In this document: positions 3,367 through 59,859 of the stretch, piece after piece
Layout of the letters: each line of letters begins with the position of its first letter
How positions within the stretch are numbered: position 1 is the stretch's first letter
Assembly (NCBI GenBank): GCA_020060545.1
Contig: JAGUZX010000135.1
Coordinates: forward strand, 4,734-68,733
DNA: 64,000 nucleotides
Direction: 5' to 3'
From: Desulfovibrio sp.
GTDB lineage: Bacteria; Bacillota; Dethiobacteria; DTU022
Translations under genes and position numbers: made by a program
Notes under the pieces: generated by a model
The model's input: only the letters and a program-made list of their open reading frames with translations
What the model was told of the DNA's origin: nothing
Databases searched by the model: none

Positions 3367-4683
3367 TCAGATCACTTTTCCCAGGAGCTCATTTAAGGTC
3401 GGCTCCCCGATCTCCTGCAGTTCGTAGCGGACCCGCACGGCGGGTTTATTCATTTTGATAATGCGGCGCAGATCGATCGGCGTGGCGATCACCACCAGCT
3501 CGGCGTCCGAACTGTTGATCGTGCTTTCCAGGTCCCTGACCTGCTTCTCCCCGTAACCCATGGCGGGCAGGAGCGTCCCGATATGGGGGTACTTTTCGTA
3601 TGTGGTTTTGAGCGTCCCCACGGCAAACCGGCGCGGATCGACCAGCGCGGTGGCGCCGTACTTCTTGGCGGCGATCACTCCGGCCCCGTAGATCATCTCG
3701 CCGTGCGTCAGGGTGGGGCCGTCTTCAATCACCAGTACTTTTTTACCCCTGATCGAATTGCCGCCCTCGATAAAAATCGGCGAAGCGGCCTCGATCACCA
3801 CCGCCCCGGGGTTGACGCGCCTGATATTTTCCTGCACGATGCCGATCCCCTTAATATCTGCCGTTTCCACCTTGTTGATAATGACCCCGTCGGCCAGGCG
3901 CAGGTTCGTCTCGCCTGGATGGTAGGAAATCTCGTGGCCGGGCCGGTGCGGGTCGACCAGGGTCAGGTAAACGTCGGCCTTGTAAAAGGAGATGTCGTTG
4001 TTGCCGCCGTCCCAGACGATCACGTCCGCCTCCTTTTCCGCCTCCGCCAGGATCCGGCCGTAATCCACCCCGGCGTAAACAATCACCCCGCGGTCGATAT
4101 GCGGTTCATACTCTTCTCTTTCCTCGATTGTGCATTTGTGCCGGTCCAGGTCTTCGTAGTCGGCAAAGCGCTGGCAGACCTGCTTGGTCAGGTCGCCGTA
4201 GGGCATCGGGTGGCGGACCGCCACCACCTTTTTGCCTTTCTCTTTCAAAATCTCGCACACACGGCGGGTAGTCTGGCTCTTGCCCACCCCGGTCCGCACC
4301 GCGGTAACGGCCACCACCGGCTTTGCGGATCGCAGCATGGTGGTCCCCGGCCCCATTAACCGGAAGTCCGCCCCCGCGGCCAGCACCGTGGACGCCTTGG
4401 ACATCACATAATGGTGCGGCACGTCGCTGTAGGCGAAAACCACCTGGTCAACTTTAGCTTTGCGGATCAGGCTTGCCAGTTCTTCTTCGGCGTAAATGGG
4501 GATCCCGTCAGGATAAAGTTTCCCGGCAAGCTGGGCCGGGTAGACCCTCCCCTCGATATCCGGGATCTGCGTAGCGGTAAAGGCTACCACGCGGTACTGC
4601 GCATTATCCCTGAAGTAAACGTTAAAATTATGGAAATCCCTCCCTGCGGCGCCCATGATCATCACTTTTTTGGCTTCCATCAT
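3367..4683 (-). CDS. P-loop protein of the cyclic 2,3-diphosphoglycerate synthetase-like family (function in bacteria unknown)
   Basis: 438 aa. Walker [10 protein letters not shown] mid-protein. Overall architecture resembles archaeal cPGS. Lies 23 bp downstream of argF on the same strand. Confidence 0.45.
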
Positions 4684-4705
4684 GCCAACCTCCCGCGCAA
4701 GATTT

Positions 4706-5638
4706 TCACATTACCAGGGCCAGGATCGCCTTTTGAAGATGCAGGCGGTTTTCGGCTTGATCGAAAACGATCGATCGCGGCCCGTCGACCACTTCTCCGG
4801 TAATTTCTTCACCCCGGTGCGCCGGCAGGCAGTGCATTACCAGGACGTCATCCCTGGCCCCGGCAAGGAGACCGCTGTTCACCTGGTAGCGCTCGAATGC
4901 CTTGAGCCGCTGCGCGTGCTCTTCTTCCTGCCCCATGCTCGCCCAAACATCGGTATAAATAATATCGGCGGTTTTTACCGCTTCGGCCGCATCGCCGTGA
5001 ATGGATATGGCGGCGCCGGTTTTGGCGGCGTCCGCCCTGGCCAGGGCGGTAATCCCAGGATCGGGCTCGTAGCCGGAAGGGGAGCAAATTGTCACGTGCA
5101 TCCCGGCCTTCGCCCCTCCAAACATCAAAGAATGGGCCATATTGTTCCCGTCTCCGATGTAAACCAGGTTAACCCCTTCCAGGCGCCCTTTTTTCTCCTT
5201 GATGGTAAAGAGATCCGAAAGGACCTGGCACGGGTGCAGCAGGTCGGTCAACCCGTTTATCACCGGCACGGTGCTGTATTCCGCCAGGTCAAGCACCTCC
5301 TGGTGCGAGTAGGTGCGGATCATGATCCCGTCCAGGTAGCGGCTTAACACCCGGGCTGTGTCGGCGATCGTTTCACCCCGCTTCAACTGGAGATCCCCTG
5401 CGCTCAGGTAGAGGGCGTAGCCTCCCAGCTGCCACATCGCCACCTCGAATGAAATGCGGGTGCGGGTGGAGGCTTTTTGAAAAATCATGCCCAGGGTTTT
5501 TCCTTGCAAGGGATGGTAAATATCCCCAATCTTTTGCTTCATTTTCAGGATCTGGGCCGTATCCAGGATCTGGTTGACCTCTTCCACGGTCAAATCATGG
5601 ATGGAGATGATATCCCTGCCTTTCATGCTCACCGCCAT
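4706..5638 (-). CDS. argF: Ornithine carbamoyltransferase
   Basis: 310 aa with STRTR carbamoyl-phosphate motif, HCLP motif and DxxMG typical of OTCase. Confidence 0.85.
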   Translation of the reverse strand: MAVSMKGRDIISIHDLTVEEVNQILDTAQILKMKQKIGDIYHPLQGKTLGMIFQKASTRTRISFEVAMWQLGGYALYLSAGDLQLKRGETIADTARVLSRYLDGIMIRTYSHQEVLDLAEYSTVPVINGLTDLLHPCQVLSDLFTIKEKKGRLEGVNLVYIGDGNNMAHSLMFGGAKAGMHVTICSPSGYEPDPGITALARADAAKTGAAISIHGDAAEAVKTADIIYTDVWASMGQEEEHAQRLKAFERYQVNSGLLAGARDDVLVMHCLPAHRGEEITGEVVDGPRSIVFDQAENRLHLQKAILALVM

Positions 5639-5927
5639 ACTTACTCCTCCTTACTATATGTTTTACCTGGCTGTGCCGGTTAAACCTATTTTGCCCCGGC
5701 AGGCAATTCTTTTATTGATTTTCCTTTTCCCTTAGCCGCTTTCTCAAGTGATCATTCTCCCCCGGGCCGGGCAAGTCCTGCTCTTTTGGTTAAGATTGCC
5801 GTTTCGAAAGCACAGGAAGGCAGGAAAGAAATATTCCCTGATAAAAAATTTACAATTCACTGATAGATACTTGAAAATTAACCGTTATCATAATCATGGA
5901 GACTAACGAGATAAAGAAGGTTGGCCC

Positions 5928-16132: not shown

Positions 16133-17101
16133 TTAATAAATTGTAAACAGGTGATCGTCGTCAATCACCCTGGTTTCGGTGTCACGCCGGTCCCGGTTAT
16201 CCCGCGGGACCGCAAACATGCCCCGGTGAGTCTCCGCATCGTAAAAAGAGAGCGAAAGTTTGCGCTCCCGGAGGCGCCGGTCGATCACTTCCGGTTCAAT
16301 CAGGCCCAAATCGCCATCCCGGGAAACGATGGCATAGCTCCAATCGGTATTGAAAGAAGGAACGAAAGCGTGGTACGAATAAACCCGCGGCATTACTTGC
16401 TTAATTGTGTTGAAAATGACCAGATGTGCGTCCAGGTAAGCTTTGGAGAAATCGCCGGCTTGCAGCGCCAGGATGCCGCCCTCAAAGAGCCGCGCTTTGA
16501 CCAGTTCATAAAACTGCCTGGTAAAGAGCCGGCGCGACGGTCCTTCCTCCACCGGTTCGGACAGGTCGCTGATGATTACATCGAAGCAAAGCGCGTTTTC
16601 TTCAAGGTAACGGCGCGCATCCATGTGGATAAGCTCCAGGCGGGGATCGTTAAAGCTGCCCTGGTGCCACCGCTCCAGGTATTGTTTGCACAGGGTGACG
16701 ACTTCGGCATCGATATCCACCATGACCACCCGCTCCACACAAGCGTGGCGCAGCACCTCCCGCAGCGTGGCCCCTTCCCCGCCTCCGATAATCATAACCC
16801 GGCGGGGGTTCGGGTGCAGCAGCATCGCCGGTTGAACCAGCGCTTCATGGTAAATGTACTCGTCATACTCGGCGGACTGGATCTTTCCGTCTAGCACCAG
16901 GCACCGCCCGAAAAAGTGGGTATCGACTATTTCAGCCTGTTGAAACCCGGTCCGCACGCTGCAAATATAATCCTTCACCGCGAACATGTGCGCCGTGGCC
17001 GGAGATGTATATTCGATATACCATTTATGTTCAGGAGAAGTCAAGGCAGGATCTCCTCCTTTAATAGTTAACCGCCGGTTTATGTTCCAGGGGGACATCA
17101 A
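16133..17101 (-). CDS. speE: Spermidine synthase
   Basis: [16 protein letters not shown] and DIDAEV...HMDARRYL motifs of aminopropyltransferase. Exact start uncertain. Confidence 0.85.
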
Positions 17102-17444
17102 AGATGCCGCGCTTTATTTCACGGGCGGTCATATTTTCTGCGGCAAATCTCTGTTTCAAGTAGTTACATGAAACCCATGGGTCAACGGTCTGACCACAGG
17201 TAAAAATGTCTACCGCAGCGTAACCAAATTCCGGCCAGGTGTGAATAGCCAGGTGTGATTCGGAAATCACTACCACGCCGCTGACACCCTGGGGGCTGAA
17301 CTGGTGAAACACTGTCTCCCTGACTTCAGCTCCCGCTTCCAAAGCCGCTGCCACCATCTCCTGCTTGATCCGATCCGGATTGTTTAACTTCTCCGGTGGG
17401 CAGCCGTAGAACTCGGCCAAAATATGACGGCCTAAAGCGCTCAT
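17061..17444 (-). CDS. speH: S-adenosylmethionine decarboxylase proenzyme (class 1A)
   Basis: [15 protein letters not shown]... with [13 protein letters not shown] self-cleavage motif. Confidence 0.85.
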
Positions 17445-17683
17445 CTCTAATACCTCCTTGTATCCAGTTTTTTTCAAGAGAAAAGCATCAAATTACATTG
17501 TAACAAAGTTCTTTCAAATGTCAATGAAATACACTCAAAATCAGGTAAAAAAACCCGCGTTGCGGCACAAGCAGTCTTTTCCGGGCAAAATGGTGATATA
17601 TTCCTTGCCTAACCCTCTAGCTTTGGCTTAAACTAAAACCAGCGGTTTATAACGTATCATATACCAGTATAAGGAAGCAACTG

Positions 17684-19798
17684 ATGGGCGCACTGGATTT
17701 TTTATTCCATCCCAAGCAAATCGCCGTCATCGGGGCCTCCGGCTCCCCACGTAAAATTGGACGGGTCATCCTGGACAACATTGTTAAAAGCGGCTACCGG
17801 GGACGGATTTACCCGGTCAACCCGCAAGAAAAGGAGATCGCCGGTTTGAAATGTTATCCCGCCGCACATCAAATCGGAACGCCGGTGGAGCTGGCCGTAG
17901 TTGCCGTGCCCGCTGATCGCTCCCTCCAGGTGGCCCGGGAATGCGGCGCCGCCGGCGTGAAAGGGCTGATTGTTATCAGCGCCGGGTTCAAGGAAGTCGG
18001 ATCGGAGGGGCTGAAACAAGAGCGCGAACTGCTCGCCGTCTGCCGCCAGTATGACATGCGCATGGTCGGCCCGAACTGTGTCGGATTAATGGACACCCAT
18101 ACACCGTTAAATGCTTCTTTTGCCAGGGGGTTCCCCGGGCAGGGTAATATTACTTTCATTTCGCAAAGCGGCGCGATGCTGGTCTCCATCCTGGACTGGA
18201 GCTTCGCCATGGGGTTGGGCTTTTCCCGTTTCATCAGCCTGGGGAATAAGGCGGACCTTAACGAAATCGACTTTATTGAAAGCAGTGCCGCCGACCCTCA
18301 GACCAAGGTCATCCTCTGCTATCTCGAGGACGTTACGGACGGTGAACGTTTTATCCGCGTTTGCACTGCAGCCGGCAAGCGAAAACCGATTATTATCCTC
18401 AAATCAGGCACCAGCACCGCCGGGGCCCAGGCGGCCAGTTCCCACACCGGCGCCCTGGCCGGCAGCAACCGCGCCTACGAAACCGCTTTCCGGCAGAGCG
18501 GTGTCCTCCAGGTAAGCCAAATGAGCGAACTTTTTGATCTGGCCGGGGCTTTTGCCGTCCAACCGCCCCCCGCCGGGGACAGGGTGGCAATCGTGACTAA
18601 CGCCGGGGGGCCGGCGATCGTCACTACCGATGCTGTGGAAAGATCCGGCTTGAAAATGGCGCGTTTCGAGAGGGAAACCATTGACGCTTTGCATTTGAAT
18701 CTTCCTCCGGAGGCGAATATTTACAACCCCGTGGATATCCTCGGCGATGCGGGCGTGGAACGCTACCGTTTCGCCCTGGAAAAGGTGCTCCAGGATCAAA
18801 ATGTCGACAGTGCCCTGGTGCTGCTGTGCCCGGCGGCGGTAACCGAACCGGAGAAAACAGCCCGAGTAATTTTGGAGCTGAAGGACGCCTTCCCCCGCAA
18901 GCCTGTTTTCGCCGTTTATATGGGTGGGAAAAGCCTGGCCAGAGGAAAAGAGATGCTGACCCTGGGGGGGGTCCCCACTTTTACCTTCCCGGAAACCGCG
19001 GTCAAAACACTGGAAGGGATAGTGCGCTTCAGCCGTGCTGCGCTGGAAACAGCGCCGCTCCCCCCCCTGCGGCTGGAAGGCGCCGACCAGAATGCGGTCA
19101 AAGCCGCTTTTTATGACGTTTTAAAAGACCGGCGCGTGGTCCTGCTCGGCCACGAAAGTTCCCGGGTCATGGCGGCGTACGGGATCCCGGCCAGCCCGGT
19201 GCGCCTGGCTTCTTCCGCGGAGGAGGCCGCGGCGATCAGTAGGGAGATCGGCTTTCCGGTGGTGCTCAAAATATCCTCGCCCCGCATCGCGCATAAGACA
19301 GACGTCGGCGGAGTTGAAATCGGGCTGCACAACGACCGGTCGGTCGAGCGGGCTTATAAAAAGATCATGGAGCGCGTGCAGCGTTTCCTGCCGGATGCCC
19401 CCATTTATGGGGTCGAGGTTCAAAAAATGGTAGACGAAGGCGTTGAAGTGATTATCGGTATGTCCCGCGATCTCCAGTTTGGCCCGCTTGTTGTATTTGG
19501 GCTGGGCGGTATTTACGTCAACCTGATCGAGGATGTTTCTTTCCGCCTCGCTTCCGCCTTGACCACCCGCAAGGCGGTGGAAGAGCTGATTGCCGAAACC
19601 AAGGCTTATACTCTCCTGAAAGGGTACCGGGGAAAGAAAACCGCCGATATGGAGGCGCTGATCGACGCCATTTTCCGGACGGCGCGCCTGGTGCTCGATT
19701 TCGAAGAAATCTCGGAGATGGACATCAACCCCTTGCGTGTGCATACCCGGGGAGCAACCGCTCTCGATGTAAAGATGACGATCGAACGCGTGCATTAA
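17684..19798 (+). CDS. ADP-forming acyl/acetyl-CoA synthetase, fused alpha-beta subunits (NDP-forming acyl-CoA synthetase superfamily)
   Basis: 704 aa. CoA-binding N-terminus (IAVIGASGSP), ligase-CoA domain, C-terminal ATP-grasp domain. Confidence 0.85.
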   Translation: MGALDFLFHPKQIAVIGASGSPRKIGRVILDNIVKSGYRGRIYPVNPQEKEIAGLKCYPAAHQIGTPVELAVVAVPADRSLQVARECGAAGVKGLIVISAGFKEVGSEGLKQERELLAVCRQYDMRMVGPNCVGLMDTHTPLNASFARGFPGQGNITFISQSGAMLVSILDWSFAMGLGFSRFISLGNKADLNEIDFIESSAADPQTKVILCYLEDVTDGERFIRVCTAAGKRKPIIILKSGTSTAGAQAASSHTGALAGSNRAYETAFRQSGVLQVSQMSELFDLAGAFAVQPPPAGDRVAIVTNAGGPAIVTTDAVERSGLKMARFERETIDALHLNLPPEANIYNPVDILGDAGVERYRFALEKVLQDQNVDSALVLLCPAAVTEPEKTARVILELKDAFPRKPVFAVYMGGKSLARGKEMLTLGGVPTFTFPETAVKTLEGIVRFSRAALETAPLPPLRLEGADQNAVKAAFYDVLKDRRVVLLGHESSRVMAAYGIPASPVRLASSAEEAAAISREIGFPVVLKISSPRIAHKTDVGGVEIGLHNDRSVERAYKKIMERVQRFLPDAPIYGVEVQKMVDEGVEVIIGMSRDLQFGPLVVFGLGGIYVNLIEDVSFRLASALTTRKAVEELIAETKAYTLLKGYRGKKTADMEALIDAIFRTARLVLDFEEISEMDINPLRVHTRGATALDVKMTIERVH

Positions 19799-27180: not shown

Positions 27181-28389
27181 ATGCCAGTCGTGGATGCCTT
27201 CGGGCAAAAAATCGCCGCTTTTTCGAAACAGGTTGAGGATCTCCGCCAGAAAGACCACTATTATTACCTGCAGCAGATTGACCGCCTGAACGGCGCCCGG
27301 GTTGAAATCGAAGGGCGGGAGATGGTTATGTTTTCATCGTACAGTTATCTCGGTCTCCTCAAGCATCCCCGGATCGAGGCGGCGGCCAAAGAGGCAGTGG
27401 ATCGCTTCGGTACAGGCACTCATGGAGTGCGGATCCTGGCCGGAACCACGGCCCTGCACAACTAGTTGGAGGAGAAAATGGCCTCCTTCATGGGTACGGA
27501 AGCCGCTATCGCTTACAGCAGCGGCTACGCGGCCAATCTGTCGACTATCTCCACCCTTACGGGGCGGCACGATATCGTTATCACCGATCGCCTCAGCCAT
27601 GCCAGCATTGTGGACGGCTGTATGCTTTCCCAGGCCGAATTCGTGCGTTTTAAACACAACGACCTGGCCGACCTGGCCAAGATCTTGGAAAAAGCGGGCT
27701 CCAACTACAAGGGGAAGCTGGTGGTTGTGGACGCGGTCTACAGTATGGATGGGGACCTCTGCCCTCTCCCGGATCTGCTGCAGCTATGCCGGGATCACCG
27801 CGCCTGGCTGTTGGTCGACGAAGCCCACTCGCTGGGGGTACTGGGTGAAACGGGACGCGGTATTCTTGAATACTACGGTATTACCGCCGATCAACCCGGG
27901 TTGATCCTTTCCGGTTCTCTCAGCAAAACAATCCCGGCCGTGGGCGGTTATATCGCGGGTAAGGCAAACCTGATTAATTTCCTCAAGCACAGCGCCCGCG
28001 CTTTTGTCTTCTCCGCGGCGCTGCCTCCCGCCGCCGTAGCGGCAGCCAAAACCGCGTTTGAGGTAATGGAGGAAGAAACCTGGCGCCTGGAGGCGGTCCG
28101 CCGCAACATCCGGCGTTTTATCGAAGGCTTGCACGCCCTGGGCTACAACACTCTGAACACCAAAAGCTGCGTTATCCCGATCATTATTGGGCAACCGGAG
28201 CCCACCCTCTCTCTAACCTGTGCCCTGCACGATGACGGAATGTTTGTCTCCCCCATCCTGCCGCCGGCGGTACCGGCGGGCACCTGCCGCTTGCGGGCCA
28301 ATGTCACCAGCGCCCATACCGGCGATGACATCGATTTTGCCCTGGGCTTACTGGAAAGACACGGGCAAAGAATGGGCATCATCGCCTGA
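27181..28389 (+). pseudogene. Alpha-oxoamine synthase family gene (SPT/BioF/Kbl-like PLP enzyme) interrupted by an in-frame TAG at 27463-27465
   Basis: ORFs 27181..27465 and 27466..28389 share one frame. Together they form a full-length AOS (DAVYSMDGD, DEAHS, SLSKTIPAVGGY PLP-lysine). The stop replaces a variable residue in the conserved H-x-x-LEEK region. Confidence 0.6.
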
Positions 28390-52155: not shown

Positions 52156-52740
52156 ATGCTGATGGACTTTCTTCTCCCGGCGGTGCCGGCATACCTGCTT
52201 GGCACGTTTCCTTCAGCCTATATCTTCACGAAGCTATTCAGCGGGATGGATATCCGCAAGCTCGGCTCGGGCAACGTGGGAGGCATGAATACCATTAGAT
52301 CCGTGGGAAAGCTGCCCGGCCTAATGACCATCGCCGCAGACATCGGGAAGGGGATCCTGGCGGTCTACCTGGCGCGGGCCCTTGGCGGCGGCCAGGCTGC
52401 GCTCCTGCTGGCCGCTTTCCTGGCGGTAATGGGGCACAATTACAACCCTTTCCTGGGATTCAAAGGAGGCAAGGGGCTCGGCACCTCCCTGGGGGCGCTG
52501 CTGGCGCTTTCGCCGCTTACCGTTTTAGTGATGCTTCTCTTCATCGCCGTGCTGCTCTTCCTGCTGCGGGATTCGAACACGGCGGCGGGGCTCGGGATCG
52601 CGGCGCTGCCGGCGGTGTTCTGGTTTATCTACCGTGATTGGCTCTGGGTCGCGGCGGGAGCGGCGCTGGCGCTGGTAATCGCCGTGAAGCACGCGCGGGA
52701 TTTCAAGGCTTACCGGAATGGCCGGCGGAAGCTGATCTAA
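52156..52740 (+). CDS. plsY: Glycerol-3-phosphate acyltransferase PlsY (paralogue 1)
   Basis: GSGNVGGMN and HNYNPFLGFKGGKG motifs. Confidence 0.8.
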   Translation: MLMDFLLPAVPAYLLGTFPSAYIFTKLFSGMDIRKLGSGNVGGMNTIRSVGKLPGLMTIAADIGKGILAVYLARALGGGQAALLLAAFLAVMGHNYNPFLGFKGGKGLGTSLGALLALSPLTVLVMLLFIAVLLFLLRDSNTAAGLGIAALPAVFWFIYRDWLWVAAGAALALVIAVKHARDFKAYRNGRRKLI

Positions 52741-59241: not shown

Positions 59242-59859
59242 TTAGGAGGCACCTTCTTCGGGCCGCTTGACCTTTTGCCCGAATTTGGACTCGGTTCCCT
59301 TCAGCAGCCGGCCGATATTGGCATGGTGGCGCAGGACAACCAGCAGGGCCATGGCGGCGCCGAACCATACGTACAGCGAAGAGAACCCGGGGAACAACCA
59401 GAATAAGAGGGGCAGCGAGAGCGCGCCAATGATGGAACCGAGGGAAACATAACGGGTTGCCGCGACGGCGGCGGCGAACAGGAATACCACGATCAGGGTA
59501 AGCCAGCCGGCCAGGGGGATCAGGACGCCGACCCCGGTGGCGGCCCCCTTGCCTCCCCTGAAACCAAGAAATACCGGAAAGCTGTGCCCCACCAGCACCG
59601 CCAAACCGGCCGCCAGCGGGTAGACCGCCGCTTCCGGGCTCAAGGCCCGGGCGATTAAAACCGCGGCGGCGCCTTTCCCCGCGTCAAGCAGGAACACCGG
59701 GAGCGCATAGCGCCACCCCAGCAGGCGCAATACATTGGTAGCGCCGATATTGCCGCTGCCGTGGCGGCGGATATCGATTCTTCCCACCAGGCGGGTCAAC
59801 AGGTAGCCGAAAGGGATTGACCCGAGCAGATAAGCGAGTCCGATCACCAGGTAACCCAT
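59242..59859 (-). CDS. plsY: Glycerol-3-phosphate acyltransferase PlsY (paralogue 2, in conserved der-plsY-gpsA block)
   Basis: GSGNIGATN and HSFPVFLGFRGGKG motifs. Confidence 0.85.
   Translation of the reverse strand: MGYLVIGLAYLLGSIPFGYLLTRLVGRIDIRRHGSGNIGATNVLRLLGWRYALPVFLLDAGKGAAAVLIARALSPEAAVYPLAAGLAVLVGHSFPVFLGFRGGKGAATGVGVLIPLAGWLTLIVVFLFAAAVAATRYVSLGSIIGALSLPLLFWLFPGFSSLYVWFGAAMALLVVLRHHANIGRLLKGTESKFGQKVKRPEEGAS

Follow-up and report, generated by a model that had tools for sequence, protein, structure and literature searches.

The window analyzed here is a 64,000-nucleotide stretch of a Desulfovibrio sp. assembly (GTDB lineage Bacillota; Dethiobacteria; DTU022; GenBank GCA_020060545.1, contig JAGUZX010000135.1, positions 4,734 to 68,733). 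Its minus strand carries an ornithine carbamoyltransferase (OTCase) gene followed directly by a gene encoding a 438-residue P-loop protein. Judged from sequence, this protein is very probably an arginine synthetase of the ArcE family, catalyzing the reaction L-arginine + ADP + Pi <-> L-citrulline + NH3 + ATP. The gene pair is real and functional, yet it is already explained by the description of ArcE in 2024. An initial annotation, made from the DNA alone, had assigned the pair to an uncharacterised metabolic step and had considered that the OTCase-linked proteins might turn out to belong to a known, characterised family. Such a family exists, ArcE having been identified both biochemically and genetically in 2024 (PMC11032458). 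The role that was proposed at the same time, in citrulline, ornithine or carbamoyl-phosphate metabolism with use of an adenine nucleotide, agrees with the ArcE family.

ArcE and the identity of the P-loop protein

The "arginine synthetase" ArcE is the product of TK2200 of Thermococcus kodakarensis (Michimori, Yokooji and Atomi, PNAS 2024; PMC11032458). The gene was found by seeking one that compensates for the absence of arginine deiminase in archaea bearing a carbamate kinase. TK2200 was annotated as a hypothetical protein and its homologues as putative GTPases; some genomes place these homologues near arcB and/or arcC. Their range takes in Bacillota, Thermoflexus, Pseudothermotoga, Acidobacteria and many further groups. 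Cyclic 2,3-diphosphoglycerate synthetase (cPGS), to which the family has low similarity, served as the outgroup (PMC11032458). The reversible reaction of the TK2200 protein (TK2200p) requires Mg2+ and uses free ammonia, not aspartate, as nitrogen source, and T. kodakarensis knockouts revealed roles of ArcE in ornithine and proline supply and in ATP generation (PMC11032458). A 2026 follow-up showed that ArcE also helps to supply carbamoyl phosphate, both for pyrimidines and for [NiFe]-hydrogenase maturation (PMC13260591). The reaction, its reversibility, the substrate specificity and the in vivo role are demonstrated for the T. kodakarensis enzyme only. No proposal for the reaction mechanism was found in the ArcE literature, and searches for literature on COG2403, or joining cPGS with OTCase, returned nothing.

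The 438-residue open reading frame (ORF) matches no Pfam or NCBIfam model above threshold; its sole match, to the CbiA P-loop family, is sub-threshold at 18.6 bits. The termini of TK2200 were deduced from primers for the two ends of the ORF in the follow-up paper: the start primer encodes MAEKKKKRVLI and the end primer KNCEKLKK-stop (PMC13260591). A 43-residue chimeric query combining the TK2200 N-terminus with the invariant N-terminal motif of the family matched short fragments only, including a 75-residue fragment (P0279) that maps to GCA_001315845.1 (locus L087), a draft archaeal genome rich in frameshifts, and to a Logan assembly (L088). Of the 33 nucleotides in the TK2200 start primer, 29 agree with the L087 gene. 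This gene encodes MAEKRRKRVLI...EKCEKLKKE-stop, and we infer from these matches that the gene at these two loci is an ArcE orthologue of a close relative of T. kodakarensis. Its 453-residue product, stitched over one homopolymer frameshift before alignment, is 65% identical to the window protein (284/438) from the first residue to the last. Both proteins have every conserved block, among them the N-terminal motif, VRTGxGKSQT and PAMGYG, and an alignment of 28 sequences shows G11, G14, R15 and H18 of the N-terminal motif to be invariant. The window protein has a P-loop NTPase fold with LpxK as structural neighbour, as found for TK2200p, and more weakly cPGS. The OTCase gene 22 nt upstream supplies the association with arcB or arcC described for arcE. 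The ArcE function is thus transferred to the window protein by inference from the identity over its whole length, from its fold and from the genes around it. Looking up the clusters of 20 distant representatives returned no Thermococcus member of the family, the hits being metagenome-assembled genomes only (Thermoproteota, Armatimonadota, Gaiella, Saccharicrinis).

The upstream gene is an ornithine carbamoyltransferase by its profile matches. The encoded protein scores 430.5 bits against TIGR00658 (equivalog cutoff 280.85) and 445.7 bits against NF001986, contains both Pfam carbamoyltransferase domains, and falls under the cutoffs of the putrescine, aspartate and N-acetylornithine carbamoyltransferase models. 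The initial annotation had given both ORFs, their strand and their coordinates correctly and had set the intergenic distance at 23 bp; the gap is 22 nt (Table 1). It contains the Shine-Dalgarno sequence GGGAGG ~7 nt 5′ of the arcE ATG and no terminator-like site, and these features make co-transcription of the two genes likely. Together with the recurrence of the pairing across phyla described below, the short gap and the Shine-Dalgarno sequence back the operonic functional unit that had been suggested. A promoter scan gave a number of sites around the operon that was not above that in shuffled sequences. A search for an ARG box (TGAATWWWWATTCA, up to 3 mismatches) gave a single 3-mismatch site upstream of the OTCase gene, from which no regulatory inference was drawn, and an Rfam search returned only two tRNAs, with no leader RNA near the operon.

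Table 1 Features of the OTCase–arcE locus in the window.
Feature	Position	Strand	Basis
OTCase (arcB/argF), 310 aa, short type	4706..5638	minus	TIGR00658, NF001986, PF02729 + PF00185
arcE homologue, predicted arginine synthetase (ATP-forming arginine deiminase), 438 aa	3367..4683	minus	homology, fold, context
N-terminal family motif, residues 11–21	4621..4653	minus	28-sequence alignment
Walker A / P-loop, residues 128–139	4267..4302	minus	G134 and K135 nearly invariant in 28-sequence alignment
Intergenic spacer, 22 nt, AAATCTTGCGCGGGAGGTTGGC	4684..4705	minus	sequence read directly
Weak sigma-70-like promoter candidate, TTGAGA-18-GAAAAT	5718..5747	minus	consensus scan, 9/12 matches, low confidence

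Archaeal cPGS had been named as the closest recognisable relative of the P-loop protein, and a phosphoanhydride-forming activity had been read from it. The distant relationship to cPGS stands; the chemistry does not, because that of ArcE is a reversible guanidino-to-ureido conversion with substrate-level ATP formation. Profile searches placed the protein in no family above threshold, and the likeness is remote and partial: phmmer against PDB sequences matched 9SXB with E=4e-5 over ~115 residues and the M. fervidus cPGS with E=0.0075. Full-length significant similarity to the latter, characterised enzyme was not found. A genuine cPGS, making the thermoprotectant cyclic 2,3-diphosphoglycerate (cDPG) from 2,3-diphosphoglycerate and ATP, is extremely improbable, even though several close homologues bear the NCBI name 'cyclic 2,3-diphosphoglycerate synthase' and cPGS is the only significant match among PDB sequences. 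That partial match contrasts with the full-length identity to the Thermococcus ArcE-type protein. cDPG is reported in PMC10690619 as exclusive to hyperthermophilic methanogens, whereas the SpoIVA gene and other Bacillota genes of the window mark its source as a spore-forming Bacillota. The close homologues are found in Bacillota, Chloroflexota, Thermotogota and other phyla, and their recurrent gene context is OTCase, carbamate kinase and arginyl-tRNA synthetase rather than glycolysis or 2-phosphoglycerate kinase.

Public labels of another kind ('predicted GTPase' or 'GTPase' at JGI and NCBI), and a precomputed weak PF02492 match in some homologues, would suggest a G3E/SIMIBI GTPase, that is, a metallochaperone similar to CobW, HypB or UreG that perhaps serves a metalloenzyme. 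This assignment can be given hardly any weight. The window protein itself lacks a PF02492 match and shows the sub-threshold CbiA match alone; UreG and HypB can be aligned with it over the ~160-residue P-loop core only; and the position that determines guanine specificity reads NKVE (residues 270–273), not NKxD. TK2200p, moreover, prefers ADP, with GDP supporting 8.4% relative activity (PMC11032458).

An ArcE-family paralogue whose substrate is another guanidino or ureido compound, such as agmatine/carbamoylputrescine or homoarginine, is improbable as well. Assays of bacterial members were not found in the literature, the family includes divergent branches at 37–45% identity, and the polyamine genes speE and speH, which encode the nearest related functions in the window, lie ~10.5 kb from the gene pair. 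The 65% identity to the Thermococcus type, however, places the window protein within a very conserved core clade, and the adjacent enzyme scores as an OTCase, reaching only 333.9 bits against the putrescine carbamoyltransferase model, far under its cutoff of 500. TK2200p is specific for L-arginine and rejects agmatine, D-arginine and guanidine (PMC11032458).

The ArcE family and its gene neighbourhood across phyla

A word-indexed search returned at least 8000 matches to the window protein. The best 120 of these are all at least 71% identical to it; their labels read 'predicted GTPase', 'GTPase' or 'cyclic 2,3-diphosphoglycerate synthase'. An exhaustive search of 50%-identity representatives gave 3867 clusters at E<=1e-3. 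The loci sampled for gene neighbourhood were the 80 best in contigs representing one genome per species; their ArcE homologues are 66–75% identical to the window protein and belong to Bacillota, Chloroflexota, Thermotogota, Atribacterota, WOR-3, Zixibacteria, Aminicenantes, Acidobacteriota, KSB1, Calditrichota and the archaeon Aciduliprofundum. Such identity between distant phyla and an archaeon suggests strong constraint and/or horizontal transfer.

The family, thousands strong, has no ArcE model in either the Pfam copy used (newest models 2025) or NCBIfam release 20 (June 2026), and its public names are 'GTPase', 'predicted GTPase' or, wrongly, 'cyclic 2,3-diphosphoglycerate synthase'. Correct naming alters how metabolism is reconstructed for anaerobes that ferment amino acids among the Bacillota, Chloroflexota, Thermotogota and candidate phyla: it affects the ATP yield from arginine, where carbamoyl phosphate comes from, and whether genomes without ArgG/ArgH appear auxotrophic for arginine.

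One 806-residue family representative (P0229) is an ArcE homologue split by an intein that contains a LAGLIDADG homing-endonuclease domain. The insertion point lies directly after the Walker A GK, such that the P-loop Ser is the +1 residue (...ILHN|STVCRK...). Inteins typically target catalytically critical motifs.

ORFs were called in the 80 loci and searched with hidden Markov models built from the neighbouring genes. An OTCase and/or a kinase of ~315 residues lies within 8 kb of the arcE homologue in 21 of the 80 loci, spanning more than 10 phyla; both partners are present in 5 of them, the kinase alone in 11 and the OTCase alone in 5. The kinase is carbamate kinase (arcC), with 416 bits against TIGR00746 (cutoff 358). 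In all 21 loci the partner is encoded on the arcE strand, and it is almost always directly adjacent. The initial annotation had asked whether the OTCase pairing is conserved in other genomes, and co-directional OTCase and/or carbamate kinase genes at this frequency exceed chance. The association of OTCase and carbamate kinase with arcE is genuine and turns up repeatedly in different phyla, although most members of the family occur on their own. The closest relatives examined (75% identity to the window protein) retain the entire neighbourhood and are therefore uninformative on the pairing.

A Pfam census of 132 likely operon partners was led by the amino-acid (carbamate) kinase family with 11 members, followed by TatC (8), OTCase, arginyl-tRNA synthetase, NusB and radical SAM (6 each) and class-III aminotransferase (4). 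The TatC and NusB partners look like lineage-specific synteny. No family corresponding to ArgG, ArgH, carbamoyl-phosphate synthetase (CPSase), ArgJ or ArgC has two members in this census. A 766-residue protein (P0125) is predicted to be an in-frame fusion of a carbamate kinase (residues 3–309; 337 bits against TIGR00746) with ArcE (residues 328–758) through a linker of ~18 residues. If genuine rather than the product of a missed stop codon, the fusion would be a Rosetta-stone connection of the two steps at which the pathway forms ATP.

Several other genes are found next to arcE. AmmeMemoRadiSam genes (a LigB/Memo-like + AMMECR1 fusion and a radical-SAM activase) lie immediately upstream of it in six Bacillota loci (L009, L010, L019, L023, L034 and L058), and a LigB-family gene (5242..5805) is located directly 5′ of arcE in the Thermococcus-type locus L087. 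An arginyl-tRNA synthetase gene is found directly upstream of the arcE homologue and on the same strand in L032, L038, L059, L068, L072, L075 and L084; all seven are annotated as Anaerolineae, Anaerolineales or Anaerolineaceae, and this linkage may be lineage-specific synteny. The distance between arcE and the aspartate carbamoyltransferase gene pyrB is 4 kb in organisms closely related to that of the window (L001, 13222..14226), the pyrB position corresponding to a point just beyond the left edge of the window, and pyrB and pyrI are located ~3 kb downstream of arcE in L087 (10082..11121). This proximity fits with ArcE and ArcB feeding carbamoyl phosphate into pyrimidine synthesis.

Direction of the pathway and other features of the window

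In the direction of breakdown, ArcE would turn arginine into citrulline and NH3 with formation of one ATP, and OTCase would phosphorolyse citrulline to ornithine and carbamoyl phosphate. The latter would then be used either by a carbamate kinase encoded elsewhere, forming a second ATP, or by pyrimidine synthesis. The ArcE step may proceed through a phosphorylated ureido (O-phospho-isourea) intermediate, analogous to those of CTP synthase and dethiobiotin synthetase (BioD), a proposal made because the fold resembles that of SIMIBI-class amidoligases. That the two genes form an arcB-arcE operon belonging to the arginine synthetase pathway, and that this pathway runs in the catabolic direction, is moderately probable when identity and direction are taken jointly. 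Catabolism or carbamoyl-phosphate supply is favoured to about the same degree as the physiological role. Catabolism is preferred because the thermodynamics favour arginine breakdown, with an equilibrium constant of 10.1 toward citrulline and ATP at pH 7.0 and 80 °C and a Ks for NH3 in the millimolar range (PMC11032458), because carbamate kinase is the dominant partner family-wide, and because the window shows fermentative features, namely an ADP-forming acyl-CoA synthetase and a threonine aldolase. A further such feature is a zinc-dependent dehydrogenase encoded next to a class-I/II aminotransferase at 46.5–48.7 kb of the window; the two may be threonine dehydrogenase and KBL.

The same enzyme could instead serve an anabolic argF-arcE module, in which OTCase makes citrulline and ArcE converts it to arginine with ATP and free ammonia, replacing ArgG and ArgH. 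This direction is possible, although rather unlikely. It is the OTCase gene that occurs in the operon, with carbamate kinase nowhere in the 64 kb, and the window OTCase best fits models of the general or anabolic type. The enzyme is reversible and produces arginine from citrulline in vivo in T. kodakarensis, and its authors suggested that an anabolic role might apply in Syntrophomonas wolfei and further Bacillota without ArgG/ArgH (PMC11032458). On the other hand, the equilibrium and the millimolar Ks favour breakdown; the commonest partner over the 80 loci is carbamate kinase, a catabolic marker; arcE is never beside other arginine-biosynthesis genes in these loci; and argB/C/D/J and carAB were not found nearby in the window. 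To our knowledge, no organism has been shown to use ArcE naturally for arginine synthesis. If the anabolic alternative were true, the argF-arcE dicistron would be the native last stage of arginine biosynthesis in this Bacillota lineage, consisting of one aspartate-independent, ADP-forming enzyme.

The subtype of the OTCase was considered as an indicator of direction and was dropped. The arcE-adjacent OTCases fall into a short group, which includes that of the window, and a long group; carbamate kinase accompanies both, and the subtype therefore cannot decide between breakdown and synthesis.

Several observations weigh against arginine breakdown by an ArcE-type enzyme as the function of the pair. 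A carbamate kinase query found no match in the window by tblastn, and a Pfam scan of the non-overlapping ORFs of at least 90 residues found no carbamate kinase, arginine deiminase (amidinotransferase family), ArgG, ArgH, CPSase or ArgB/C/D/J. The earlier statement that no other arginine gene or carbamate kinase is nearby thus holds for all 64 kb; with an arginine/ornithine transporter also missing, the catabolic direction has no local support. The window OTCase is of the short type and its best models are those of the general or anabolic enzyme. The reaction is near equilibrium, such that mass action could push it either way. With respect to identity, the tie to TK2200 goes through a close relative recognised by primer matches, and the literature search found no assay of any bacterial ArcE.

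The remaining features of interest lie elsewhere in the window. The speE (spermidine synthase) and speH (S-adenosylmethionine decarboxylase) genes (16133..17477, minus strand) overlap by 41 nt and are located next to ndk. Opposite them, at 17684..19798 on the plus strand, is the ADP-forming acyl-CoA synthetase gene (CoA_binding, Succ_CoA_lig and ATP-grasp_5 domains), followed by a gene for a DRTGG/AAA_26 protein. ADP-forming acyl-CoA synthetases are typical of amino-acid and peptide fermenters. Two abutting ORFs of 94 and 307 residues (27181..28389, plus strand) together resemble one class-I/II aminotransferase (KBL/BioF-like) split by an in-frame TAG at 27463..27465 (...LHN-TAG-LEEKMASFMG...), with Pfam profile positions 48–357 contained in the second ORF. 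The TAG could indicate that the gene is a pseudogene, or it could be a sequencing error or an amber codon that is read through, as some Bacillota translate TAG as pyrrolysine. Two PlsY-type glycerol-3-phosphate acyltransferase paralogues are encoded within 7 kb of one another, at 52156..52740 (plus strand) and at 59242..59859 (minus strand), the latter in a conserved der-plsY-gpsA arrangement.

Comparison with known systems

The window protein resembles ArcE of T. kodakarensis in family (65% identity to the Thermococcus-type orthologue), length class, P-loop and the structural neighbours LpxK and cPGS. The two also share the clustering of the gene with arcB/arcC and an annotation history as hypothetical protein or putative GTPase. 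They differ in that TK2200 belongs to a hyperthermophilic archaeon, whereas the window derives from a spore-forming Bacillota with no carbamate kinase within 64 kb. The locus numbers TK2200, TK0871 and TK2158 are far apart, while the window arcE is directly operonic with the OTCase gene. The activity was shown for TK2200p and is predicted for the window protein from sequence, fold and context.

The classical arginine deiminase pathway (arcA-arcB-arcC) likewise leads from arginine through citrulline to ornithine and carbamoyl phosphate and has the OTCase step in common. However, ArcA, which adopts the amidinotransferase fold, is hydrolytic and unrelated to ArcE, whereas ArcE conserves the energy as ATP in a reversible step. 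The deiminase pathway yields one ATP per arginine compared to two for the full ArcE pathway; ArcE thus turns the textbook one-ATP route into a two-ATP route and in reverse is a one-step arginine synthase. The cPGS enzymes (PDB accession numbers 8ORK, 8ORU and 9SXB) share 18% identity and a partial sequence match with the window protein and occur in other taxa and gene contexts. They form an intramolecular phosphoanhydride, unlike the guanidino/ureido interconversion of ArcE, and act on a different substrate.

The SIMIBI amidoligases (the synthetase domain of CTP synthase, and BioD) show fold-level likeness only, with 13–16% identity, and ArcE has additional N- and C-terminal domains. ArgG and ArgH have the same net outcome, in that citrulline becomes arginine and ATP is spent. 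They are, however, two enzymes of unrelated folds that use aspartate as nitrogen donor and cleave ATP to AMP and pyrophosphate via citrullyl-AMP, whereas ArcE is a single enzyme that uses free NH3 and yields ADP and Pi.

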